Shown here: piece after piece, positions 305 through 61,242 of the stretch | Position numbering within the stretch: the stretch's first letter is position 1 | Layout: each line of letters opens with the position of its first letter | Assembly: GCA_030390025.1 (NCBI GenBank) | Contig: CM059430.1 | Coordinates: 61,256,001 to 61,320,000 of the forward strand | Origin: Squalus acanthias | Lineage: Eukaryota | Direction: 5' to 3' | DNA length: 64,000 nt | The notes under the pieces: generated by a model | What the model was told of the DNA's origin: nothing | The model's database searches: none | Seen by the model: the letters and a program-made list of their open reading frames with translations, nothing else | Made by a program: the position numbers and the translations under genes

Positions 305-650
305 CATAGAGTCATAGTCATAGAGTCAGAACGGCACAGAAGGAGGCCATTCGGCTCATCGAGTCCGTGCCGGCTCTCTGTAGAGCAATCCAGTCAGTCC
401 CATTCCCCCGCTCAATCCCCGTAGCCCTGCAAGTTTATTTCCCTCAAGTGCCTATCCAGTCTCCCCTTGAAAACATTGTGTCTCCCCTTCCACCACTTCC
501 GTCGACAGCGAGTTCCAGGTCCTCATCACTCGCTGCGTAAAAAAGTTTTTCCTCACATCCCCCCTATATCTCTTGCCCAAAACCTTAAATCTGTGTCCCC
601 TAGTCCTTGTACCATCAACTAGTGGGAACAGCCTTTCCCCGTCTAACCTT
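305..650 (-). mobile_element. CR1 LINE 3' fragment
   Basis: ORF 452..706 carries the CR1 ORF2 C-terminus (TRGHRFKV...KNFFTQRVMRTWNSL). Tandem catagagt tail at ~305. Confidence 0.85.
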
Positions 651-770
651 GCCAATTTCACACCATCACTCAAAGTTAAAATTACTCCATAGGTCTTTAA
701 ACCCAAGTATTGCAGACAAACTTTTCAATTTAAATAATGAAATACACAGTGTGGAGAAACAAAATGCTAG

Positions 771-1728
771 AGGGGAGACATTTTCTCTGTGCGCTATAGG
801 TAGCGGAATGGTAAGTGCATTACTCCTGGGTGAGAAGCTGGCAGGCTGCCTGCCCAGGAGTCTCAATGGGAGGCCTGGCTGATATTAACGGCCGGGCCTC
901 ATACGCATCCCTGCCGACCAGCTGCCCGCAGGCAGCAAATGGGTGTGAGGAGGTAGTCGCCCGGCTGCCAGCAGGCATAGATCAGGCAGCCCAGAGGCCT
1001 CCTGCTGTCTTTGGTCCGAGTTCCTAGTAAAATTGTAATGTATTCTTTATGATTTAAATAAAATTACCAACCAGAGGAAATCTTTATGACTACGGTTACG
1101 TGGTGCTACACATAAGGATCACAGTAATCCCCACACCCCCCCGTGCATTTTGGCACTGAGCAGCATGCAGTATTTAAAATGGAATTCAGACTGTTTTTCT
1201 GAACTTTTGCCTTTTCATATTAATTTTATCTTTCTGCTTTGTATCACTTTGTGTCTTAGAGACGTGCAAACATAATTAAAATACAAAATTTAGAATCCAT
1301 GTTGACTTGAACATTTTCACAAAACTGGAGTTGGGTTTGGGGGAAGGATTCTACAGGGTCTCGCAGTTGGGAAGTGGGGGTGCTCAGGGCACCAGAGGCC
1401 AAGGCTTTTCTTGTGGGGTCCAGAGGAGCGCTCCTGCTCCTCCTAGCCCAACATAGATAAGTTTAAAACGCTTATTCCCTGGTAGATTTTACTGAGCTGG
1501 GTGCCCACGGTGGGTGCTCTGCTCAGTATTCCGTTAAAATGCCATTGGGGTCCTATGCACATAATTGGATCCTGATTACTGTATATTAACGAGGCTCCTG
1601 TCCAAATTCAGGAGAGAGTCACCCACCGGCAAAAAGGTTAAATGTGCTGTAGAGCGCGATTGGAGCAGCAAATAATAGAGCTGCTCGATTTTAAATCCCG
1701 CTTGGGTAGAGGGAGTTGAAATTCCTCC
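771..1728. mobile_element. Degenerate GC-rich MITE-like element interrupted by an inverted copy of its own flank
   Basis: Ends ggggagacattttc / gttgaaattcctcc resemble the TIR type at 17770. GC-rich halves 800-1005 and 1331-1728. TIR match is weak. Confidence 0.35.
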
Positions 1729-2079
1729 TGTTGTCCTGCTTTAAGGCCACTTACCTCCAGTATTGTGAAAATGTTCGAATCAACATGGATTCTAAATTTT
1801 GTATTTTAATAATGTTTACACGTCTCTGAGACACAAAGTGATTCAAATGAGAAAGATACAATTAATATGAAAAGGTAAAAGTTCAGAAAAACAGTCTGAG
1901 TTCCATTTTAAATACTGCATGCTGCTCAGTGCCAAAATGCACGGGGGGTGTGGGGATTACTGTGATCCTTATGTGTAGCACCACGTAACCGTAGTCATAA
2001 AGATTTCCTCTGGTTGGTAATTCTATTTAAATCATAAAGAATACATTTACAATTTTACTAGGAACCCTGACCAAAGACA
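1006..2079. repeat. Long inverted repeat, arms ~1006-1330 and ~1755-2079
   Basis: The arms align as reverse complements over ~325 bp with scattered substitutions, e.g. ctacggttacgtggtgctacacataaggatcacag vs ctgtgatccttatgtgtagcaccacgtaaccgtag. Confidence 0.95.
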
Positions 2080-2229
2080 ATCTTCAGCCTTGAAGCTATA
2101 CTGTGGGACAGTGTGTAAATGCTTAATGCATTTATATGAAATAGACCTACATGAATGCACTTACAATGTTGCTGCACAGAGCAACCAGCATTGCTCTTCC
2201 TCCATGATCTCCCAACAGCTAAATATATC

Positions 2230-2416
2230 GGTGGTTGAAGCAGAGAGCATTAACACATTTAAGGGGAGGCTTGATGCATACATGAAAGAGTCGGAATAGA
2301 GACATATGGGGCAAGATGGGAAGAGGTAATTCGAGTGGGAAGAGGGTCGTGTGGGGTATAAACACCAGCATAGACTGAATTTGGCCGAATGACCTGTTTC
2401 TGTGCTGTAGATTCTA
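2230..2416 (+). mobile_element. CR1 LINE 3' end fragment
   Basis: VVEAESINTFKGRLD, then ggccgaatgacctgtttctgtgctgtag 3' UTR. Confidence 0.75.
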
Positions 2417-2935
2417 GTCCTGGGTCTTCTACTGTGACCTTATCTGCAACAATGTGCACCAAATGTTGAAATTAGCAATTATTATTCACATTAAAACAAT
2501 ATTCTGGACAAAAAAGGTCTCAGCTAATTCAAAGTTTTTGTTGATCCCAACTAATTCAAATTTTAATGAGCTAAATGTCATATTATTCACAAGTAGATGA
2601 CATTGTTTACCGTTATCATCCAGCTCTCCCTCTCTTATCTGTTCAACAGCAATAGTGCTCAAATGTCCAATGTGTTAGCCTGGACAGTGAGTATCAGGGA
2701 ACATTACAATTAAGCCATTATATCTTGAATGGATGTTCTCAGGTGGACACTTCCACAGGTGCTGCTGGGTAGCAATTTGAAGAATGGGCTGATTTGATTT
2801 TCCCTCCCAAGCACTGGGATGCTGAGCCCAGTTGTTGCCACTCAAGATGACACTGGCCAATCCAGCACAGACCAGAGATTGAAGCAACAAACAATGCATT
2901 CACCCAATGAGCCCTTGGATAATTACATTTTTGTA

Positions 2936-3348
2936 TGAAAGAAAGACTTGCATTTATATAGCGTCTTTCACGACCACTGGACGTCCCAAAGTGCTTTACA
3001 GCCAATGAAGTACTTTTTGAAGGGTAGTCACTGTTGTAATGTAGGAAACACGGCAGCCAATTTGTGCACAGCAAGCTCCCACAAACAACAATGTGATAAT
3101 GACCAGATAATCTGTTTTAGTGATGTTGATTGAGGGATAAATATTGGCTGGGACACCCTGCTCTTCTTCAAAGATAGTGCCATAGGATCTTTTACGCATC
3201 ACTTGAGAGGGCAGACGGGGCTTCAGTTTAAAGTCTCACCTGAAAGACGCCAGTACTGCACCGGAGTGTCAGCCTAGATTTTCTTTGTGCTCAGGTCTCT
3301 GGAGTGGGACCTGAACCCACAACTTTTTGACTCAGAGGTGAGGGTACT
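2936..3348 (-). mobile_element. Deu-domain SINE (SacSINE1/AmnSINE1-like), head truncated
   Basis: Tail gaaagacttgcatttatatagcg, central Deu-like block and B-box (gggttcaggtccc on -). Homologous copies at 5516, 7994 and 14730. Confidence 0.8.
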
Positions 3349-30785: not shown

Positions 30786-31452
30786 AATTGGTCTGCGACC
30801 AGGTTACACGGGTCTCTGAGCGCAAATATGGAGGAAATTCAAGACCCACCTCTTTAAAATTCCTGGGCTGGTGCACTGATTGGTGCAAGAAGGCTGCTTC
30901 ATGATTGGTCTTAATCCACCAATGAGGGAGCAAACTTATCTTGTCTCCAGGCCAGGAAATTTAAATGGCTGCACCTGACCCATTCATCTGGCTCACCCTT
31001 CCCGTGTTAAGCACACAAAGCCGACTTCAGCTACAGTTCATTTCAGTTCACAAAGAAATCAAATTTATGCATTTAGTACAGGAAGTGGGAGCCCAATGAA
31101 AGTAGCTTGTGGCCTAAAGTTGGCTGGCTGGTTGCCTATCGAACACTGCTGACTTAAAGGCCAGAATTTTCCTTATCGAGTCGGGCCGGGTGTGTGCAGG
31201 CCGCATGGCGGGTTGGAACTGCGTTGTATTGATCAGCCCGCTCCTCAGAGTGACTTTCAGTTAATGGCTCCTATTACGGCAGACATGCGCGTTTCCCGGC
31301 CCTATTAAATGGTGCGGGTCTGATGATGTCATTGATGACTCATTTCCAGTGGGAATATTTAAAGCAGCCTTGGCCACATTGCATCTGAAGATTCGTGTAG
31401 GAGTGTGCAGCGAGGATATTGCCGGATCTTCTTCTTGCTCAGACTTCAAAAC

Positions 31453-33357
31453 ATGACTTCCCAAAGACAGAGGGCTGCACCTCGCTTTTCCGATGACTCC
31501 CTACATATTCTTGTGGAGGGAGTCAGAACACGCAAGGAGGTCCTCTTCCCTGCTGATGGGCGGAAGAGACCTCCCCAAGACACAAAAAGAGCCTGGCTCC
31601 AAATTGCTGAGGAGGTCAACAGCAGGGATGTGGTAAGGCGGACCTGGGCGCAGTGCCGGAAGCGCTTCAATGATCTGATGAGATCAGGAAAGGTGAGTGC
31701 AAAGCCACACTCACCTTCATCCTGCTGTGCCTGTCACCACATCCCCATCACTCTGCCTTCTCAAGCCTACTCCTGCACATCATTCCTCACACCAACATAC
31801 CTTACAGCTCCACCCATCCCTCTCTATGTACATACTCACATACCCCTCTGACTAACCACCCCTCACACTCACCCTCATCCTAATGCAATCATACCAAGTA
31901 ACACCACACAAGGAGGCCATTTGGCATTGTCACTTTGGCATTGGCACCACACTCCCTCATAGTCACTCTCTACAGATGTAACCCACACATTCCATACAGT
32001 CATGCCATCAGTCTCACGCAAACTTCTCTTTTTTCCCTCCTTGCAGGAGAAACGAGCGCACAACAAGAGAAGAATAGAACCGGAGGTTGCCCTCCATCCT
32101 TTATCACTTTAACTCCAGCAGAGAAGGTCGCCTTGGAGGTGTCAAGAGTTGCGGAGCTGCTGGCGGTGGGAGACGGAGAGAGGGGGACCTCTCAGCAACT
32201 TGGTGACAGAGTTACATCTCATACAGCCACATGGCATACAGCAGTCACTCATCTGGTGACTGATGTCAGCAGCCAGTGAATGTTCATCATGTGCATAATG
32301 GCATCGTTACCCATTCTTGATATAACATTTCGAAATCATCTCTTTACTCTGCCACAGGTCCATAAAGAGCCCCCACCCCACTGTCCAGCCGGAGGAGGAA
32401 GACGACTCTTCAGAGGAGCCTCCAGCCTCTAAGGGAGCATCGTCACCAGGTCTAAGCGCACCCAGCACCAGCACAGGTACGCACACCTCGGTGGGTCCTA
32501 TGCGAGATAGAGTAATGTTGTCACCTGCTGTTGTCACCAGTCACAAGAGAGCAAGAGCAGATGGTGGAGACAGGGACAGCAGTGGAGACTCCTCGCTGGA
32601 GGGTGCAGGATGCTCCCAGCTCTGATCAGCTGCATGCAGATGCTGAGCCTCGGGGGGTGGGGGGTGGGGGTGGTGGGGCCATCGAGAAAGTGGGTGATCC
32701 TGGAGGTGCAGGAAGAAGTGCAGGAGGCTCTGACAGGTTTAGTGAGCGCGATGTCTGCAAATGTGCAAAGAAGGGAGGAGTCCATCTCCAACATGAGCAC
32801 CACCATATCGCAGGCGATGAGGACGGTATGCTCTTCCATGGAAAGGATGGCCACCTGCATGGAGCAGCTAATACGCCACTTGCATGAACACCTGCTATCT
32901 CTGGACAACAGATGGCAAAGGTTCATAGACCTCCTCTCTAGGAGGGATGTAAACGTAGACCTGGGTCCTCATGGCCCCACTGCTGTGCAGCAAGGTGCTC
33001 TCCAGCTCCTTGCTAGCATGGAAGTGCAGGTGGCCCATGAGAGGGATGATGATGAGAGGGGACATGGAAGTGGGGGCTCCTCTCAAAGCACTCACACTTC
33101 TCCCCCATTGCCCCCCCCCTCCTCAGTCAGAGCCCCAGATGCCTCCTGGGATCACGATGGCCGAGTCTGTCCCTACACGGTCGCAGGAGCAGCAGACTTT
33201 GGCGGGGCCATCACAGGCTCCAAGACCCAGAGGACATCCACCAAAAGTGACTACGCAGTCGCAGCAGGGAAGTGAGCAGGCTGCCTCTACCTCTGCTGAA
33301 GCCTCAGAGTTTGTACCTCGTAGAAGCACACATAAACAAAAAATGACACAGAAGTAG
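31453..33357 (+). pseudogene. Harbinger Myb/SANT-like DNA-binding gene, 3 exons (31453-31692, 32047-32202, 32358-33357)
   Basis: RAAPRFSDDSLHILVEGV...AWLQIAEEVNS...RTWAQCRKRFNDL. GT-AG sites are conserved with the other two copies. 4-nt deletion in exon 2, stop and frameshifts in exon 3. Confidence 0.88.
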
Positions 33358-38372: not shown

Positions 38373-40366
38373 ATGTCCACCAGCAGGCAAAAGTGTGCTC
38401 CACGCTTCGATGAGCCCTCCCTCCAAGCTCTGGTGGAGGGAGCAAGATCGAATAAGGAGGTGCACTTCCCTTCCTCAGGGAGAAAAAAGCCACCCCAGCA
38501 GACTAAAGCTGTGTGGCTGCAAGTGGCCCAGGAGGTCAAGTCCATATCGATGAGCCGCAGAACCTGGCTGCAATGCAGGAAGAGGTTTCATGACCTTCTC
38601 TGCACAGGAAAAGTGAGTATGACTTTCCCATCTCCCTCAATCTGATCCCCATCGCCTCTCCTCACCAGCATACTGCTTTGCTAACCTCTTCCTCCACATC
38701 CCACTTGACACTTACATCCCTGCACCCTTACCCATTGCCTCTCTCTCTATGGTCACATTCACTTAACTATTCGACCATGTAGCCCTCACACTCCCTATCA
38801 CTGTGATGCAACAACAACAACAACTTACAACACACATGGAGGGCCCTTTGTCTCTTTCTAAGCGTCTATGCTATGCATTCTCTACACTCACTCCTTCATT
38901 CTCACTCAAACTCCACTTGTGTCCCTCATTGCAGGAAAAGAGAGCCCACAATAAGAGGGAAAGAGCCATGACAGGAGGAGGGCCACCCTCAGTAGCCCAG
39001 CTCACCACCTGGGAGGAGGTGGCCCTGGCAATCGCCTGGGTCGAGGAGGATTCCCAAGTGGGGGACGGACAGACGGGCGCATCACAGCAAGCTGGTGACA
39101 GAATAGTTTGGCATCTCTATCATTGACATTGCATGAGTCACTGATAATGAATCTGATGCTCTAACAGATTGACTTATGATCATCTGCACTATTCAATGTG
39201 CATGTAACCTTGGCCTCACATCTCTTACTCTTTCCTTTATTTCCCCACAGGACCATCGAAAGCCCCCGTCTCCACTGTCCAGGAGGTAGAGCCTGAGCTT
39301 CCAGACTCCTCAGAGGAATCTGCAACCTCTGAGGGCGCAGTGTCAGCAGAATTCAGCGCACCCAACACCCAGCACCAGCGCAGACACTCACACCTTGGTG
39401 GGACCTTCGCAAGATAGAGTAGTGTCGGCACCTGGTGTATCACAGCTCACAAGTGAGCATCAGCAGATGGTGGAGACAGGGACAGCAGTGGAGAGTCCTC
39501 GTCGGAGGGCGCAGGACTCTGCCAGCTCGGCTCAGCTGCATGTCGACCTTGTGCCTCCAGGTCCATCCAGATGGAGAGTGGTGCTGGAACTCCAGGAACA
39601 GGTGCAGGAGTCTCTGGCAGGTTATGTCTCCAGGGTCGCTGCGAGTGTGGAGCGAATGGAGGAGTCCATCGCGAACATGAGCAGAGCCTTTGTGGAGGCA
39701 TTGGCGCATGAACACATCACCGCGGAAAGGATGGCAACCTCCGTGGAAAGGATGGCTAACTCCGTGGTAAGGCTGGCTACCGTAGAGGAGAGGATGGCTA
39801 CGGTAGAGGAGAGGAAGGCTATGGCCATAGAGGAGCTTAGTCGCCAGGGTCTTGAAAACATGGTCATTGTTCAGAATAGAATGACATCTCTTGAGGAGCG
39901 ATGGTCAGCTATTGAGCATAGAAACCAGACCTTCATGGAAGTCCTCTGGAGTAGGACTTCCAGTGCAGAAACTGGTCCTCATGGCCCCCCTGAGGTGCAG
40001 CAAGGTGCTGTCAAGCCACTTGCTAGCTCTGAGGTGGGGCTGACCCATGAGAGGGATGTTGGTGGCAGACAACAAGGAAGTGCGGGCTCCTCTCCAAGCG
40101 CTCACAAGACCATGCCACTGCAAAGCCCTCGGTCAGAGCCCCACCAGAGTCCTCACCCAACTGAGATGGGCGTCTCAGCCCCTGCACAGCTGCAGGAGCA
40201 GCAGACTGTTGCCAAGCCCTCACAGGCTCGCAACCCCAGAGGACGCCCGCCAAAAGCGTCGAGGCAGGAGCAGCAAGAATGTGAGCAAGGGGCCACCACA
40301 TCTGCTGAAGCCACAGGGGAAGCACCACGTAGGAGCATGCGTAAGAGGAAGATAATGCACAAGTAG
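38373..40366 (+). pseudogene. Harbinger Myb/SANT-like gene, 3 exons (38373-38612, 38935-39094, 39251-40366)
   Basis: KCAPRFDEPSLQALVEG...WLQVAQEV...RTWLQCRKRFHDL, then EKRAHNKRERAMTGGGP. The only lesion seen is a 7-nt duplication near 39361 that shifts exon 3. Confidence 0.88.
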
Positions 40367-52311: not shown

Positions 52312-52404
52312 AAGAAGTGGAAGAATAGTGTCGCTTAATTTAATTGGAGGGGGAGACTTGTGCCAGGTTGGATTAACACGGAGAGAATTGCCATATGAAG
52401 TGAA

Positions 52405-53091
52405 TGTAAGATTATCATGGATTTGCTGGTTTCTAGAATACTTGTTTTAATATCTTATAATCATTAATATCTTCTAATCATTAGTATCTTATAATCAGCA
52501 GAAATGGATTTATAATCGCGTGTAAGAACTAAAAGTAGAAGTCTGTAATCATCAATTGTACGCAATGATAACCTGAATTATATATGACATGTAACCCTTT
52601 TGCTTATAATTAAAAGACTGTGAGTAAGTGGTATCCCAGACAGCCTGGGGTGAGAAAGTGAACTTCTACAGCGTGAGTCTCCGTGGATCCCGAGGCAGAA
52701 GGCAAGTTCGTAGATTTTTGCCGGTCGGAGGCATTCACCCGTGGGAAGCCTCCGACCGCAAATTCAGGCTCCATAGGTTTCGAATGAGAGTAAGGGTATA
52801 AGAAGGGGGGCTCAACAGCCACAAGATGTAGAAGATTTCAGGAAGAATCAAGGAGACACCTGAGAGACAAAGAGTGAAGATGGACAAGAGACACAGGGTG
52901 CAGTTTACTTACGATTGCGGCTTCTACCCAGAGGTTAACGGGGTAATGTAAGTCTGAATTATGCTGTGTAAACTGCTACATGAATATTGTAATGTATTAA
53001 GTCCTGTTTGTGCTGAATAATGTTAAATCACAGTCCCCAATATGTGTCAACCTCGAATCATTTGGGACTATGGACCCTCTGGGATCTTACA
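52405..53091 (+). mobile_element. LTR of an LTR retroelement (contains a family-B MITE end at 52672-52771)
   Basis: Inverted termini TGTAAGAT...ATCTTACA, TATA-like box at 52797, PBS 3 nt downstream. Confidence 0.75.
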
Positions 53092-53094
53092 AAT

Positions 53095-53114
53095 TGGCGA
53101 GCCTTAGCCAGGAG
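53095..53114 (+). promoter_or_regulatory. Primer binding site, tRNA-Arg(ACG)-type
   Basis: tggcgagcc(tt)agccaggag is the complement of the tRNA-Arg(ACG) 3' end (TGGCGAGCCAGCCAGGAG) with a 2-nt insertion. Confidence 0.75.
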
Positions 53115-53601
53115 GTTGATTGACAGTTGATTCTTTTATAAACTATTTGTGGCAAGCAAGAGCCTAGGACTGACGTGGCTGATCACCTAGTCAGTTAAGG
53201 AAGGAAAACATTTGGGGTGTGTAGGACACTGCGACCTACCAATAGACATAGCAACGAGTTAGTAGAAATGGTGGGCTTGACAGAAGTTGAGCATGCCAGG
53301 GATAAAGTGTTCGGAAAATGAAGTGTAACTGATTTAGTATTGTTTCTGATGAGTGCGGAAGGAAACTCATATCAGAAGGTGACAGAGTGGGTCCAGAGCC
53401 AAGTGTCTCTGGGAAAGGTCAAATTAGACAAAGGAAAGTGTTTGTTAGGCTATGCAGCTGATTTGTGTGTGCAGCGCGGTGAAGTACGGGAAGAGAAACA
53501 TTTAGGAGCACAGGGAATAAAAGAAGGGGAACATTTGGAAACACAGAAAATAATAATGAGAAGTTCGCACAACACCAGGTTATAGTCCAACAGATTTATT
53601 T

Positions 53602-53646
53602 AATTTTACAAGCTTTCGGAGCTGTCGCTCCTTCGTCAGGTAAGTT
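53602..53646 (-). ncRNA. Minimal type I hammerhead ribozyme motif (minus arm)
   Basis: Exact reverse complement of 58561-58605. Confidence 0.75.
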
Positions 53647-53883
53647 AGCAATGAGAGAATCTCCCAGAATTCACAATTTAAACCCAGACAAAATCTATTC
53701 ACATTATTCGCTACAACAAAGAGCACAGCCAAGACAATGAGATGTGTCCCAGGGGGTCCAACGTGTCAAACCACCTGCTGGCTGCATATCCTGTCAATTT
53801 GTGTTCTTGTGTTAGCCTTTTTAAAAAAAAACAAAAAAAAACAAAAAAAAAAAAAAACACCTGGGAAGACCGGCCATGTCAAG

Positions 53884-55973
53884 TCACGTTCTGTATCGTG
53901 ACATGAACCCGATATCGCGATTGAGGCCATCCTCATGAGTGCGGAACTTGGCTATCAGTTTCTGCTCTATGATTTTGCGCTGTCGTGTATCTCGAAGGCC
54001 GCCTTGGAGAACGCTTACCCGCAGATCCGAGGCTGAATGCCCCTGGCTGCTGAAGTGTTCCCCGACTGGGAGGCAACCCTCCTGCCTGGCGATTGTTGCG
54101 CGGTGTCCGTTCATACGTTGTCTCAGTGTCTGCATGGTCTCGCCGATGTACCATGCTCTGGAGCATCCTTTACTGCAACGTATCAGGTAGACAACGTTGG
54201 CCGAGTCACATGAGTATGTACCGTGTACCTGGTGGGTAGTGTCCTCACGTGTAATGATGGTATCTGTGTCCATGATTTGGCATGTCTTGCAGAGGTTGCC
54301 GTGGCAGGGTTGTGTGGTGTCTTGGTTGCTGTTCTCCTGAAAGATGGGTAATCTGCTGCGAACGATGGTACTTTTGAGGTTAGGCGGCTGCTTGAAGGCG
54401 AGTAGTGGAGGCGTGGGGATGGCCTTAGCAAGGTGTTCGTCGTCATCGATGACATGTTGAAGGCTGCGAAGAACATGGCGTAGTTTTTCCGCTCCGGGGA
54501 AGTACTGGACGACGTAGGGTACTCTGTTGGTTGTGTCCCGTGTTCGTCTTCTGAGGAGGTCTATGCGGTTTTTCGCTGTGGCCCGTCGGAACTGTCGATC
54601 GACGAGTCGAGCGTCATATCCCGTTCTTACGAGAGCGTCTTTCAGTGTCCGTAGGTGTCCATCGCGTTCCTCCTCGTCTGAGCAGATCCTGTGTATTCGC
54701 AGGGCTTGTCCATAGGGGATGGCTTCTTTAACGTGGTTAGGGTGGAAGCTGGAGAAGTGGAGCATCGTGAGGTTGTCCGTGGGCTTGCGGTAGAGTGAAG
54801 TGCTGAGGCGTCCGTCTTTGATGGAGATTCGTGTGTCCAAGAATGAAACCGATTCTGAGGAGTAGTCCATGGTGAGTTTGATGGTGGGATGGAACCTGTT
54901 GATGCTATCGTGTAGTCCTTTCAGTGATCCTTCGCCGTGGGTCCAAAGGAAGAAGATGTCGTCGATGTATCTGGTGTACAGCGTTGGTTGGAGGTCCTGT
55001 GCAGCGAAGAAGTCTTGCTCGAACTTGTGCATGAAGATGTTGGCGTATTGGGGTGCGAATTTGGTCCCCATGGCTGTTCCGTGTGTTTGGGTGAAAAAAT
55101 GGTTGTCGAAGGTGAAGACATTGTGGTCAAGGATGAAGCGGATGAGTTGTAAGATGGCGTCCGGAGATTGGCTGTTGTTGGTGTTGAGTACTGAGGCTGT
55201 CGCAGCGATGCCGTCATTGTGGGGGATATTGGTGTAGAGTGCCGATACGTCCATTGTGACGAGGAGTGTTCCTGGTTCAACTGGTCCATGGGTGCTGAGT
55301 TTCTGCAAGAAGTCTGTAGTGTCGCGACAGAAGCTGGGGGTTCCCTGTACGATGGGTTTCAGGATGCCCTCGACGTACCCAGAGAGGTTCTCACACAGGG
55401 TTCCGTTGCCTGATACGATAGGACGTCCGGGTGTGTTGGCTTTGTGTATCTTTGGGAGGCAGTAAAAGTCTCCTACGCGGGGAGTACGTGGGATGAGAGC
55501 GCGTAGGATGTTTTGAAGGTCTGGATCGAAGGTCTTGATCAGTCTATTGAGTTGGCGGGTGTGTTCTTTGGTCGGATCTGCGGGTAGCTGTCTGTAGTGT
55601 TCCTGGTTGTCCAGTTGTCGGTATGCTTCTTTGCAATAGTCCGTTCTGTTCTGTATGACGATGGCTCCTCCTTTGTCCGCTGGTTTGATGACGATGTTGC
55701 GGTTGGTCTTGAGTGCGTGGATGGCGTTGCGTTGTGCTCGGGTGACATTCTGGACTGTCTTGTGAGTACGGCTGATGAATCTGGCGTTGATGCATTTCCT
55801 GACAGCTTGAGCATACATGTCAAGCTTAGGGTTGCGACCCTCCGGAGGGGTCCAATTTGACTCTTTCTTCCTCGGTTGCAGCACTGCGGTTCCCTCTGTC
55901 TGCTGTTCCAGATCATTGATTGTCCCATTAGGAATGTTGCTGACATCTTGGGATTTGTGGTAGTATTCCCGGA
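53884..55973 (-). CDS. Penelope-like RT + GIY-YIG endonuclease ORF, 5' truncated inverted copy
   Basis: Open frame of >666 aa with two visible amino-acid differences from the + copy. Confidence 0.9.
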
Positions 55974-58340
55974 GACACCGCCAAACAGACGAGGCAACGG
56001 AACTACGCTACCTACATGCGCATCAAGAACAGGAAGCTTGAGAAACTCGGCGTAACCACCAGCTACAACCAAGCCTCCCCCGGTACCACGGTTGCAACCA
56101 CAGGGAAGTCCATCGTCAACCTGTCGGACCACACCCTTCAACCAGACGAAATCGAAGTTCTCGCCCTAGGGCTCAAGTTCTGCCCCACCACCAAAATGGA
56201 CCCCATCGGTCTCGCGGCGGACACAGAGGAATTCATCAGGAGAATGAGGATCCGGGAATACTACCACAAATCCCAAGATGTCAGCAACATTCCTAATGGG
56301 ACAATCAATGATCCGGAACAGCAGACAGAGGGAACTGCAGTGCTGCAACCGAGGAAGAAAGAGTCAAATTGGACCCTTCCGGAGGGTCGCAACCCTAAGC
56401 TTGACATGTATGCTCAAGCTGTCAGGAAATGCATCAACGCCAGATTCATCAGCCGTACTCACAAGACAGTCCAGAATGTCACCCGAGCACAACGCAACGC
56501 CATCCACGCACTCAAGACCAACCGCAACATCGTCATCAAACCAGCGGACAAAGGAGGAGCCATCGTCATACAGAACAGAACGGACTATTGCAAAGAAGCA
56601 TACCGACAACTGGACAACCAGGAACACTACAGACAGCTACCCGCAGATCCGACCAAAGAACACACCCGCCAACTCAATAGACTGATCAAGACCTTCGATC
56701 CAGACCTTCAAAACATCCTACGCGCTCTCATCCCACGTACTCCCCGCGTAGGAGACTTTTACTGCCTCCCAAAGATACACAAAGCCAACACACCCGGACG
56801 TCCTATCGTATCAGGCAACGGAACCCTGTGTGAGAACCTCTCTGGGTACGTCGAGGGCATCCTGAAACCCATCGTACAGGGAACCCCCAGCTTCTGTCGC
56901 GACACTGCAGACTTCTTGCAGAAACTCAGCACCCATGGACCAGTTGAACCAGGAACACTCCTCGTCACAATGGACGTATCGGCACTCTACACCAATATCC
57001 CCCACAATGACGGCATCGCTGCGACAGCCTCAGTACTCAACACCAACAACAGCCAATCTCCGGACGCCATCTTACAACTCATCCGCTTCATCCTTGACCA
57101 CAATGTCTTCACCTTCGACAACCATTTTTTCACCCAAACACATGGAACAGCCATGGGGACCAAATTCGCACCCCAATACGCCAACATCTTCATGCACAAG
57201 TTCGAGCAAGACTTCTTCGCTGCACAGGACCTCCAACCAACGCTGTACACCAGATACATCGACGACATCTTCTTCCTTTGGACCCACGGCGAAGGATCAC
57301 TGAAAGGACTACACGATAGCATCAACAGGTTCCATCCCACCATCAAACTCACCATGGACTACTCCTCAGAATCGGTTTCATTCTTGGACACACGAATCTC
57401 CATCAAAGACGGACGCCTCAGCACTTCACTCTACCGCAAGCCCACGGACAACCTCACGATGCTCCACTTCTCCAGCTTCCACCCTAACCACGTTAAAGAA
57501 GCCATCCCCTATGGACAAGCCCTGCGAATACACAGGATCTGCTCAGACGAGGAGGAACGCGATGGACACCTACGGACACTGAAAGACGCTCTCGTAAGAA
57601 CGGGATATGACGCTCGACTCGTCGATCGACAGTTCCGACGGGCCACAGCGAAAAACCGCATAGACCTCCTCAGAAGACGAACACGGGACACAACCAACAG
57701 AGTACCCTACGTCGTCCAGTACTTCCCCGGAGCGGAAAAACTACGCCATGTTCTTCGCAGCCTTCAACATGTCATCGATGACGACGAACACCTTGCTAAG
57801 GCCATCCCCACGCCTCCACTACTCGCCTTCAAGCAGCCGCCTAACCTCAAAAGTACCATCGTTCGCAGCAGATTACCCATCTTTCAGGAGAACAGCAACC
57901 AAGACACCACACAACCCTGCCACGGCAACCTCTGCAAGACATGCCAAATCATGGACACAGATACCATCATTACACGTGAGGACACTACCCACCAGGTACA
58001 CGGTACATACTCATGTGACTCGGCCAACGTTGTCTACCTGATACGTTGCAGTAAAGGATGCTCCAGAGCATGGTACATCGGCGAGACCATGCAGACACTG
58101 AGACAACGTATGAACGGACACCGCGCAACAATCGCCAGGCAGGAGGGTTGCCTCCCAGTCGGGGAACACTTCAGCAGCCAGGGGCATTCAGCCTCGGATC
58201 TGCGGGTAAGCGTTCTCCAAGGCGGCCTTCGAGATACACGACAGCGCAAAATCATAGAGCAGAAACTGATAGCCAAGTTCCGCACTCATGAGGATGGCCT
58301 CAATCGCGATATCGGGTTCATGTCACGATACAGAACGTGA
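55974..58340 (+). CDS. Penelope-like RT + GIY-YIG endonuclease ORF, 5' truncated but uninterrupted
   Basis: IKPADKGG, LPKIHK..PGRPIVS, DVSALYT, GTAMG, RYIDD. Linker CX4CX2C. VVYLIRC..C..WYIGET plus two His. Frame is open from the junction (first ATG 56016). Confidence 0.95.
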   Translation, partial: DTAKQTRQRNYATYMRIKNRKLEKLGVTTSYNQASPGTTVATTGKSIVNLSDHTLQPDEIEVLALGLKFCPTTKMDPIGLAADTEEFIRRMRIREYYHKSQDVSNIPNGTINDPEQQTEGTAVLQPRKKESNWTLPEGRNPKLDMYAQAVRKCINARFISRTHKTVQNVTRAQRNAIHALKTNRNIVIKPADKGGAIVIQNRTDYCKEAYRQLDNQEHYRQLPADPTKEHTRQLNRLIKTFDPDLQNILRALIPRTPRVGDFYCLPKIHKANTPGRPIVSGNGTLCENLSGYVEGILKPIVQGTPSFCRDTADFLQKLSTHGPVEPGTLLVTMDVSALYTNIPHNDGIAATASVLNTNNSQSPDAILQLIRFILDHNVFTFDNHFFTQTHGTAMGTKFAPQYANIFMHKFEQDFFAAQDLQPTLYTRYIDDIFFLWTHGEGSLKGLHDSINRFHPTIKLTMDYSSESVSFLDTRISIKDGRLSTSLYRKPTDNLTMLHFSSFHPNHVKEAIPYGQALRIHRICSDEEERDGHLRTLKDALVRTGYDARLVDRQFRRATAKNRIDLLRRRTRDTTNRVPYVVQYFPGAEKLRHVLRSLQHVIDDDEHLAKAIPTPPLLAFKQPPNLKSTIVRSRLPIFQENSNQDTTQPCHGNLCKTCQIMDTDTIITREDTTHQVHGTYSCDSANVVYLIRCSKGCSRAWYIGETMQTLRQRMNGHRATIARQEGCLPVGEHFSSQGHSASDLRVSVLQGGLRDTRQRKIIEQKLIAKFRTHEDGLNRDIGFMSRYRT

Positions 58341-58560
58341 CTTGACATCATGGCCGGTCTTCCCAGGTGTTTTTTTTTTTTTTTAAAAAGGCTAACACAA
58401 GAACACAAATTGACAGGATATGCAGCCAGCAGGTGGTTTGACACGTTGGACCCCCTGGGACACATCTCATTGTCTTGGCTGTGCTCTTTGTTGTAGCGAA
58501 TAATGTGAATAGATTTTGTCTGGGTTTAAATTGTGAATTCTGGGAGATTCTCTCATTGCT

Positions 58561-58605
58561 AACTTACCTGACGAAGGAGCGACAGCTCCGAAAGCTTGTA
58601 AAATT
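58561..58605 (+). ncRNA. Minimal type I hammerhead ribozyme motif (plus arm)
   Basis: ttac-CTGACGA-a-ggagc(gaca)gctcc-GAAA-gctt-gtaa: core boxes, stem II, palindromic AAGCTT stem III and stem I ttac/gtaa. Penelope-like elements are known to carry such motifs. Confidence 0.75.
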
Positions 58606-58975
58606 AAATAAATCTGTTGGACTATAACCTGGTGTTGTGCGACTTCTCATTTTTGTCCACCCCAGTCCAACGCCGGCATCTCCACATCAGAAAATAATAG
58701 AGAGGGAGAAGGAATGCCAGCAACTAGAAACCAGGAATCTGGGAACTCAGCAAATGAAGGAAAAAAAACAAGGAGTTAGAGAACCAAAACAAGCTGCTGA
58801 GACGACAGTTCAAAATGCAAAAGAAAAGGAACTGAAAGTTGAAAGCAGAACTGAAGTTGTTGGTAAATGCTGTCAACTTCTGTGCCGAGAAAAACAAAAC
58901 ACAAAAATTACTGAGTGAAAGGAAGCTGAAAGGATGCTGGAATTTAACTTTGTGTGAAAGTGTGAAAGTGTGAAA

Positions 58976-59005
58976 CCCTAACCCTAACCCTAACCCTAAC
59001 CCTAA
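58976..59005 (-). repeat. Interstitial telomeric repeat (TTAGGG)5
   Basis: Five perfect ccctaa units preceded by (gtgtgaaa)3. Confidence 0.9.
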
Positions 59006-59357: not shown

Positions 59358-60597
59358 TGCGTTACCCAGCCCAATTAAATGGTGCGGGTCTGGTGACGTC
59401 ATTGATGACATGTTTTCAGCTGGGATATTTAAAGGAGCCATGGCCACATTGCATTTGAAGGTTCATCTAGGAGTGTGCAGGTCGTGCACTTCATTATTCC
59501 ACTGCTGCACACACCACCAGAAATGACTGCACAGAGGCAGAGGGCTGCACCCAGGTTCTCCGATGACTCCCTCCATATGCTTGTGGAAGGAGTCAGAGCA
59601 CACAGGGATGTCCTCTTCTTTGCTGATGGGAGGAAGAGACCTCCTAAGCAGAGCAAAGTAGCCTGGCTCCAAATAGCAGAGCAGGTGAATGGCAGGGATG
59701 TCATACTGAGGACCTGGCTGCAATGCTTTAAATGCGTCAACGATCTTGTTAGATCCAGAAAGGTGAGTACAAAGCCACACTTACCTTCATCCTGCTGTGC
59801 CTCTCATCACATCCCCATCACTCTGCCTTCCCAACCCTACTGCTGCACATCCTTACTCACACCAACATACCTTGCACCTCCACCCATCCCTCTCTCTCTA
59901 TCTACATTATCACATCCCCATCTTACTCATCACCACTCACACTCACCCTCATCCTAATGCAATCATGCTAACTAACAACACACAAGGAGGCCACTTGGAA
60001 TTGCCACCCCAATCCATTCTCGTCACCCTCTACAGAGGTAACCCATCCATTTCCTACACTCATTCCATCACACTCACTCAACCTTCTCTTCTTTCCCTCC
60101 TTGCAGAAAAGAGAGTCCACAATAAGAGTGAGAGGGAGAGAACTGGTGGTGGAGCCCAATCAGTGGTCACCATGACCACAGCAGAGGAGGCTGCCTTAGA
60201 GATGGCGGGAGTCGCCAAGCACCCAGAGGTGGGAAACAGAGAGAGGGGGACATCTCAGCAACCTGGGGACAGAATTACATATCATACAGCTACATGGCAC
60301 ACATCAGTCACTCATATGTGGGCTGATGTCAGCAGCCATTGAGTGGTCATTATGTGTATAAGGTCTCTGTACCCAATCTACATATGAGATATTTAACTCA
60401 TCTCTTTACTCTTCCACAGGTCCATCAAGAGCCACCACCACTGTCCAGGAGCAAGAGGAAGGCGACTCCTTAGAGGAGCCTCCAGCCTCTGAGGGCGCAC
60501 CATCACCAGACAGAAGCGCACCCAGCACCAGCGCAGATACTCACACCTTGGTGGGTTCCTCGCGAGATAGAGTAGTGTTGTCACCTGGTGTGTCACA
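59358..60597 (+). mobile_element. Truncated Harbinger fragment with Myb/SANT pseudogene (exons 59523-59762, ~60107-60265, 60420-60597)
   Basis: Colinear with 31288-32537. RAAPRFSDDSLHMLVEGV...RTWLQC. Exon-2 donor mutated, no TIRs. Confidence 0.88.
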
Positions 60598-60610
60598 AAT
60601 CACAACCGAA

Positions 60611-60891
60611 CCACATGAAGTGAATGTAAGATTATCATGGATTTGCTGGTTTCTAGAATACTTGTTTTAATATCTTATAATCATTAATATCATATAATCA
60701 ACAGTATCTTATAATCAGCACAAATGGATTTATAATCGCGTGTAAGAACTAAAAGTAGAAGTCTGTAATCATCAATTGTACGCAATGATAACCTGAATTA
60801 TATATGACATGTAACCCTTTTGCTTATAATTAAAAGACTGTGAGTAAGTGGTATCCCAGACAGCCTGGGGTGAGAAAGTGAACTTCTACAG
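60611..60891 (+). repeat. Second copy of 52391-52671 (14 nt of flank plus first 267 nt of the LTR)
   Basis: Near-identical direct repeat at offset 8220. Confidence 0.92.
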
Positions 60892-61242
60892 TCAAATAGG
60901 GAAGCTGTGGGTAAAAGTTGGATATTAGCCAACAGTAAGGATGAGGCACAGAGTGCAGCTAGACTGGGAACGAACATTTCAAATTATTGGAATGTTATGA
61001 TTTTCTGCAGTGAGTTAAAAACAGAGGCCTTTCACAGGACCAGCAAGGCAGTGTATCTCTACAGTATGGAGACATGTTCTTTTGTGTTGCCATAACTGCC
61101 CCAGATATGAGTCTTGATGGTCAAAAACAGATGATGTAAGGGGGGTCATAAGACTAGAACCTGCGCAAGCCAAGATGCTGCAGATGTGGCATCTTTTAGA
61201 TTGGATTTTGGATTTTAGGTTTTGGGTCTAAGCCAGTGATTG

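Follow-up and report, generated by a model that had tools for sequence, protein, structure and literature searches.

A recent, polymorphic Penelope-like insertion of two head-to-head truncated copies in Squalus acanthias

The long palindrome described here, found within a 64,000 nt window of Squalus acanthias DNA (the whole stretch analysed, whose coordinates are used throughout), is real, polymorphic and young, and represents a long but unexceptional case of an insertion layout already published. We consider it very probable that it represents one recent, polymorphic insertion of two 5′-truncated copies of a Penelope-like element (PLE), likely generated by two-ended priming at a staggered cut and likely inert.

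Structure and age of the insertion

The structure is a head-to-head pair of 5′-truncated copies of one Penelope-like element, with arms of ~2.4 kb and a spacer of 277 nt (Table 1). The main inverted repeat (53876-55973 and 56251-58348) is 2098 nt long, with a distance of 277 nt between its arms, and is accompanied by a second block of 273 nt (53565-53837 and 58370-58642). Alignment of the full arms (53556-55973 against 56251-58651) gave 2392 matching and 30 non-matching columns, the latter mostly within one poly-T tract, with a longest perfect run of 1202 nt. The changes between the arms are five substitutions, three of them at CpG, plus a 3 nt deletion and a 1 nt insertion in the left arm, in which the poly-T tract is also longer. 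A first-pass annotation of the window had described a ~2.4 kb palindrome with a 277 nt loop, a handful of arm differences with several at CpG, and an inverted arm without the last ~36 nt; the inverted repeat, the arm alignment and the absence of the tail from the left arm bear out each of these points.

When the copies are placed on a natural 3022 nt tandem unit of the element (from locus L026), the right one starts at unit position 310 and the left one at 588, with a 2 nt overlap at the centre; the spacer is therefore additional 5′ sequence belonging to the right copy, and not foreign DNA. Microhomology of 1–2 nt is found at all three joints. Both ORFs had been called uninterrupted, and the two frames are stop-free from stop to stop (798 and 707 aa), but as the starting points in the unit imply, both lack the N-terminus (~103 codons in the right copy and ~196 in the left), the full ORF of the unit being 892 aa in five of the nine loci checked. 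Because both copies are without the ORF start and the upstream pLTR, which together with a full ORF would mark a source copy, neither copy would serve as a source.

The reverse transcriptase (RT) of the element matches Pfam RVT_1 (E 2.7e-08) and has DKG and YIDD motifs, and a PDB sequence search with the element gave no matches at E<=1. A C-terminal GIY-YIG endonuclease (EN) is recognizable by motif only (YLI-x-C-x3-C ... YIG, with two downstream His), and Pfam returned nothing above cut-off for this part. The terminal repeat contains a hammerhead core that folds with stems I and II, a putative ribozyme by its fold; the hammerhead was not detected by Rfam, which gave only a chance microRNA match (E 0.66). 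A linker finger, CX2-5CxxC, between RT and EN marks the Neptune and Nematis clades and is absent from Penelope and Poseidon, according to the available text of PMC8557442. A CX4CxxC linker is present in this element, which would make it a Neptune-type PLE, and the Penelope/Poseidon clade was ruled out by the same zinc finger. The element shares a DKG RT, the linker and, at the C-terminus, a GIY-YIG domain with two core cysteines with the Neptune and Nematis EN+ PLEs in that text; it differs from them in that the target here is AT-rich LTR-internal DNA, and its clade is assigned by linker motif and not by a tree.

A 12 nt duplication brackets both copies. Eighteen paralogues of the host LTR element, all of them non-local, were examined: most cross the 12 nt site once into the right flank, and the rest diverge there. 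An empty allele was found in one contig each from runs X1 and X3 (one sample), which match 53419-53555 without a difference and continue into 18 letters of the right flank. As the paralogues cross the site once and an empty allele exists, the 12 nt repeat is a true target duplication. The proposal of a single event is upheld by this one duplication and the single site in the empty allele, which also rule out two independent insertions. In another sample, a contig of run X5 runs from the left flank into the tail-less arm; with the empty allele in one sample and the filled left junction in another, the insertion is polymorphic.

The contigs compared come from five of the 24 listed sequencing runs, and they speak to two points that the first-pass annotation had wanted checked. 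The empty site is seen in the contigs of runs X1 and X3, and, on the question of a fold-back artefact, the independent X5 contig shows the left junction, and the left junction only, to be real. The centre and right junction are bridged by none of the contigs listed and the whole structure is spanned by none, which leaves some room for the second arm to be an assembly or read fold-back artefact, as do the missing extra base at 53565 in run X5 and an X5 flank that is unlike the assembly at four places. An artefact is nevertheless extremely improbable in view of the asymmetric tail, the target duplication, the private CpG differences and the independent contig that connects the left flank with the tail-less arm. 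Over 53410-53564 the X5 filled allele departs from the assembly at these places, whereas the X1/X3 empty allele equals the assembly flank at 137/137 positions; the X5 mismatch could be accounted for if the assembly combined two haplotypes in mosaic fashion or if recombination had taken place next to the insertion.

In ~33–41 other long copies the five substitutions are rare or missing, and elsewhere both arms carry the family majority at every compared site, with no shared non-majority sites. The substitutions therefore date from the insertion or later, the arms have not been homogenized, and an old age masked by arm homogenization was ruled out. At the epaulette-shark mutation rate of 7e-10 (given in the accessible part of PMC10587355), two non-CpG changes in ~4,500 sites correspond to ~10^5–10^6 generations, or less if RT or assembly errors contribute. 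The description ‘very young’ thus holds in that the insertion is recent, but its youth is relative.

Table 1. Features at and around the insertion, in window coordinates
Feature	Position	Strand	Remarks
Upstream LTR of old LTR element	52405..53091	+	TG...CA ends, short inverted termini, middle rearranged
TATA-like box in upstream LTR	52797		
Primer-binding-site (PBS)-like sequence right behind LTR	53095..53114	+	Position conserved in paralogues L032-L050
Host LTR element leader/broken gag-like region	53092..53555	+	‘Gag-like’ by position; stops in three frames
AATAAA in host leader	53516	+	
Target-site duplication, left copy, 12 nt	53544..53555	+	Last base common to element
Inverted, tail-less, 5′-truncated Penelope-like copy	53556..55973	-	Unit 588 to ~2986; open frame
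Left-arm minimal hammerhead-ribozyme motif (putative)	53606..53643	-	Same sequence as right motif
Head-to-head junction microhomology, 2 nt	55972..55973		
Spacer, 277 nt, extra 5′ part of direct copy	55974..56250	+	
Direct, tailed, 5′-truncated copy	55972..58689	+	Unit positions 310-3022
Direct-copy motifs	56547; 57255; 57918; 58035-58082		RT DKG; YIDD; CX4CxxC linker; GIY-YIG/CCHH region
Right-arm minimal hammerhead-ribozyme motif (putative)	58564..58601	+	Stem I, core, stem II; by fold and the description in the available part of PMC4209133
One-sided tail, 36 nt	58652..58687	+	
Target-site duplication, right copy	58688..58699	+	First two bases common to element’s tail end

Frequency of the layout in the genome

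The tail junction of the family has 16,067 exact matches in the genome, whereas a reversed control pattern has none, which excludes a chance origin of the junction. Sixty of the first 61 tail sites among the matches listed were sampled, the one dropped lying 470 nt from the previous site. A tail-less inverted arm is present in 39 of the 60 insertions, where target duplications are mostly 11–14 nt, and is the commonest layout in the family. In agreement with the earlier expectation that inverted arms are usually short, their length in these 39 insertions ranges from 31 to 1134 nt, with a median of 99 nt and a single example above 1 kb.

An adjacent inverted, 5′-truncated copy with a one-sided tail is typical of EN+ PLEs in the available portions of PMC8557442 and PMC3846280, and the hallmarks of an inverted 5′-truncated copy, a one-sided 30–40 nt tail and a target duplication are all found at our locus. 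The insertion units in these sources, including Pen2a_Av (PMC3846280), are like the present one in their head-to-head inverted copy, one-sided 30–40 bp tail, target duplication, 5′ truncation and hammerhead in the terminal repeat; they differ in the inverted arm, which is 2.4 kb here and pLTR-sized in the units described there. Our literature search, in which few subscription papers were covered, returned nothing specific on long shark PLE palindromes, vertebrate PLE insertion polymorphism or Penelope twin priming.

Long arms are a minority, yet there are tens of them in this genome. For a marker ~2.3 kb from the 3′ end, 1862 matches were counted; in the first 100 of them, which are on contig C1 only, four head-to-head pairs occur, and every one was confirmed. 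Their arms measure 2903, 2369, ~2490 and ~2340 nt, and the two pairs named last have no spacer. At four pairs per 100 matches, the genome would be expected to contain some 75 palindromes whose arms are 2.3 kb or longer, with a wide error of ~20–190, an estimate that lends no support to the rarity that had been attributed to the long-arm structure. A second marker, at ~1.3 kb, gave four complete pairs in the first 100 of its 2494 matches, and the three new ones were confirmed.

Several other loci were notable in their own right. L113 (874-5859; G000:C1 ~141.34 Mb) is a spacer-less palindrome of a second subfamily, 94.7% identical to the unit, with arms of ~2.5 kb, four mismatched columns in 4986, a one-sided tail and a ~12 nt duplication. 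L114 (1123-5801; G000:C1 ~148.85 Mb) is nearly spacer-less, with arms of ~2.3 kb at 99.6% identity that have 11 variants in common, five of which are private. L117 (G000:C9 ~59.34 Mb) and L126 (G000:C1 ~137.58 Mb) are complex inverted arrangements of multiple copies; their arms, at 99.9% identity, are at least 3976 and at least 2373 nt long, respectively, and both structures run past the stretch retrieved. In many short insertions of older subfamilies (among L051-L110), both arms end at ~2892-2899 of the unit, just 5′ of the hammerhead core.

Origin of the inverted copies

Our preferred model is one in which the GIY-YIG endonuclease would cut the AT-rich target with a 12 nt stagger. One 3′ end would prime at the end of the tail, using 2 nt of microhomology, and so give rise to the right copy, and the other would prime ~36 nt further in, at the base of the tail, using 1 nt, to give the left copy. 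The two cDNAs would stop at different points and be joined via 2 nt at the centre, the LTR being merely the target hit by the insertion. According to the accessible text of PMC11167929, both strands of AT-rich DNA are cut and extended by a purified PLE protein, which starts at two sites, one on either side of the tail. This protein, PAc (Poseidon, from the green anole), parallels our locus in its two start points a tail apart, the extension of both strands, and an AT-rich target whose bottom strand carries ATT; it differs in clade, ours being Neptune-type by its linker, and a complete inverted insertion was not reconstituted in the experiments described there.

The sampled insertions allow the two arms to be compared. 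In the 31 that were mappable, the 5′ reach of the tail-less arm exceeds that of the tailed arm by more than 10 nt in seven, the reverse holds in three, and the arms end within 10 nt of each other in 21. The seven cannot derive from copying back of the tailed strand, because their tail-less arm outreaches the tailed arm. The 21 near-equal cases exceed the expectation for independent stops, many ending at one fixed place in older subfamilies, and show that something often equalizes the arms, either a shared RNA end or, in some of the cases, fold-back.

Fold-back could also have produced the insertion studied here, if the first cDNA primed itself through the 2 nt microhomology and copied back to the tail boundary, a route that we regard as possible but doubtful. 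It fits the geometry of this locus equally well, since the tail-less arm is the shorter one, and self-priming is proposed in the available part of PMC3846280. Near-symmetric centres are frequent (21/31), L113 and L114 are without a spacer, and the arms of other long palindromes share variants that are rare elsewhere (11 in L114, five of them private); however, such shared variants indicate one source element, not one cDNA, and neither the seven insertions with the longer tail-less arm nor the extension of both strands in vitro (PMC11167929, in the text available) favours copying back. The arms at our locus share no private variant, and one template and two are not told apart; nor are one and two source elements, because none of the five substitutions is common in other copies. 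Beyond this locus, the family census, with its lopsided arms and spacer-less palindromes of 2.3–2.5 kb, bears on how Penelope-like elements form inverted copies.

The upstream LTR, hairpin RNA and fragility

The LTR ends at 53091, 464 nt upstream of the insertion, and its inverted termini, the PBS-like site behind it and the position of AATAAA in family copies show that it points into the palindrome, as had been stated for an LTR ~460 nt upstream. We take the PBS-like sequence to resemble a tRNA-Arg site; ARAGORN found no tRNA in the 64,000 nt window. The LTR is an old, rearranged copy: it is 687 nt long as against ~930–950 nt in the family, it is 80–89% identical to the best copies beyond the locus and one duplicated fragment, and its middle has been replaced (95 nt as against ~365 nt in family copies) just upstream of a TATA-like box that is common to one of two paralogues. 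Family copies have AATAAA 75 nt before their end, whereas this LTR has none of its own. Pfam returned nothing above cut-off for the host leader, and four paralogue stretches of the host element offered no clear long internal ORF for classification.

Pieces of this element occur elsewhere. Within the window, a 281 nt segment made up of the LTR start and 14 nt of flank occurs twice, at 98% identity (52391-52671 and 60611-60891), and on contig C3 there is a 98% inverted copy of 60548-61167 (L135 4495-5114), which amounts to recent copying of pieces of the old LTR element. A diverged duplicate of the host element (L123, G000:C6:61331212-61338182; 90–97%) lies ~20 kb downstream and has a deletion over the insertion site. 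Further along the window, 59433-59957 is a Myb/SANT-like ORF (Pfam Myb_DNA-bind_5, E 1.5e-06), which we take to be a likely Harbinger-type element, with related copies at 31286-32546 and 38873-39452 and a short run of telomere-like hexamers ahead of it at ~58975-59005.

The locus has the long, near-perfect inverted arms of a hairpin-RNA locus, and the first-pass annotation had envisaged LTR read-through over both arms. We regard it as highly improbable that such read-through yields a 2.4 kb hairpin RNA which undergoes dicing or A-to-I editing and exerts a measurable repression on the family in carriers. The inward LTR with its TATA-like box and lost AATAAA would suit it, as would the fact that neither AATAAA nor ATTAAA occurs on the + strand in the left arm or the spacer, and contigs of run X6 (from a related organism; RNA only by guess) cover 52814-53434 at a depth of 4–7, starting just past the TATA-like box. 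Against this, the LTR is old and rearranged, an AATAAA stands 40 nt ahead of the insertion, and the X6 leader contig departs from the window sequence at 53434, short of the insertion. Contigs of run X9 (same organism label; RNA by guess) do not cover 53002-53469, a hole that is uninformative as the sample may lack the insertion. In contigs of the compared runs guessed as RNA, the arms are swamped by family copies and no link from LTR to arms was found, and the few A-to-G differences in X6 and X9 contigs are indistinguishable from alleles. None of these contigs connects an RNA with this allele. The further claim of family silencing is weakened by Drosophila melanogaster, in which inverted Penelope copies yield siRNAs that are inefficient at silencing (PMC3681739, in the portion available); those rearranged copies resemble ours in their long inverted repeats and as a possible source of dsRNA, but their siRNAs were measured, whereas our locus is known from sequence alone. 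With ~75 palindromes of comparable length expected in the genome, any special role for this locus is diluted; if transcribed, it would still be one among dozens of such hairpins.

It is similarly improbable that a polymorphic hairpin behind a firing LTR provides the host with a dsRNA trap against a family of 16,000 copies, with the lopsided arms recording two-ended priming in vivo. Were the LTR to feed a silencing hairpin, the locus would stand as a rare example in vertebrates of an active retroelement that had made its own RNAi trap, and comparing carriers with non-carriers would amount to a natural experiment on how a vertebrate Penelope-like element is controlled by endo-siRNA or ADAR. Because the insertion is polymorphic and has private marker bases, read-through and small-RNA output are testable in carriers versus non-carriers.

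The palindrome had also been called a fragile, cruciform-prone site, a proposal that the spacer undermines. Cruciform extrusion goes with an absent or very short spacer, and that here is 277 nt. In work cited in the available part of PMC7999016, 6 kb inverted Ty arms with a 280 bp spacer are stable in wild-type yeast and fragile only at low polymerase alpha, and a 52 bp spacer abolishes fork stalling in eukaryotic cells. The arms are long and 99.8% identical, and widely spaced repeats turn unstable in long single-stranded DNA (PMC10164571, in the text accessible), but there is no sign of homogenization, with no non-majority site shared between the arms. A cruciform-extruding fragile site is therefore highly improbable, and with a spacer of 277 nt the locus is at most a conditional one. 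L113 and L114 are better candidates for cruciform extrusion and fragility than this locus, L113 far better.
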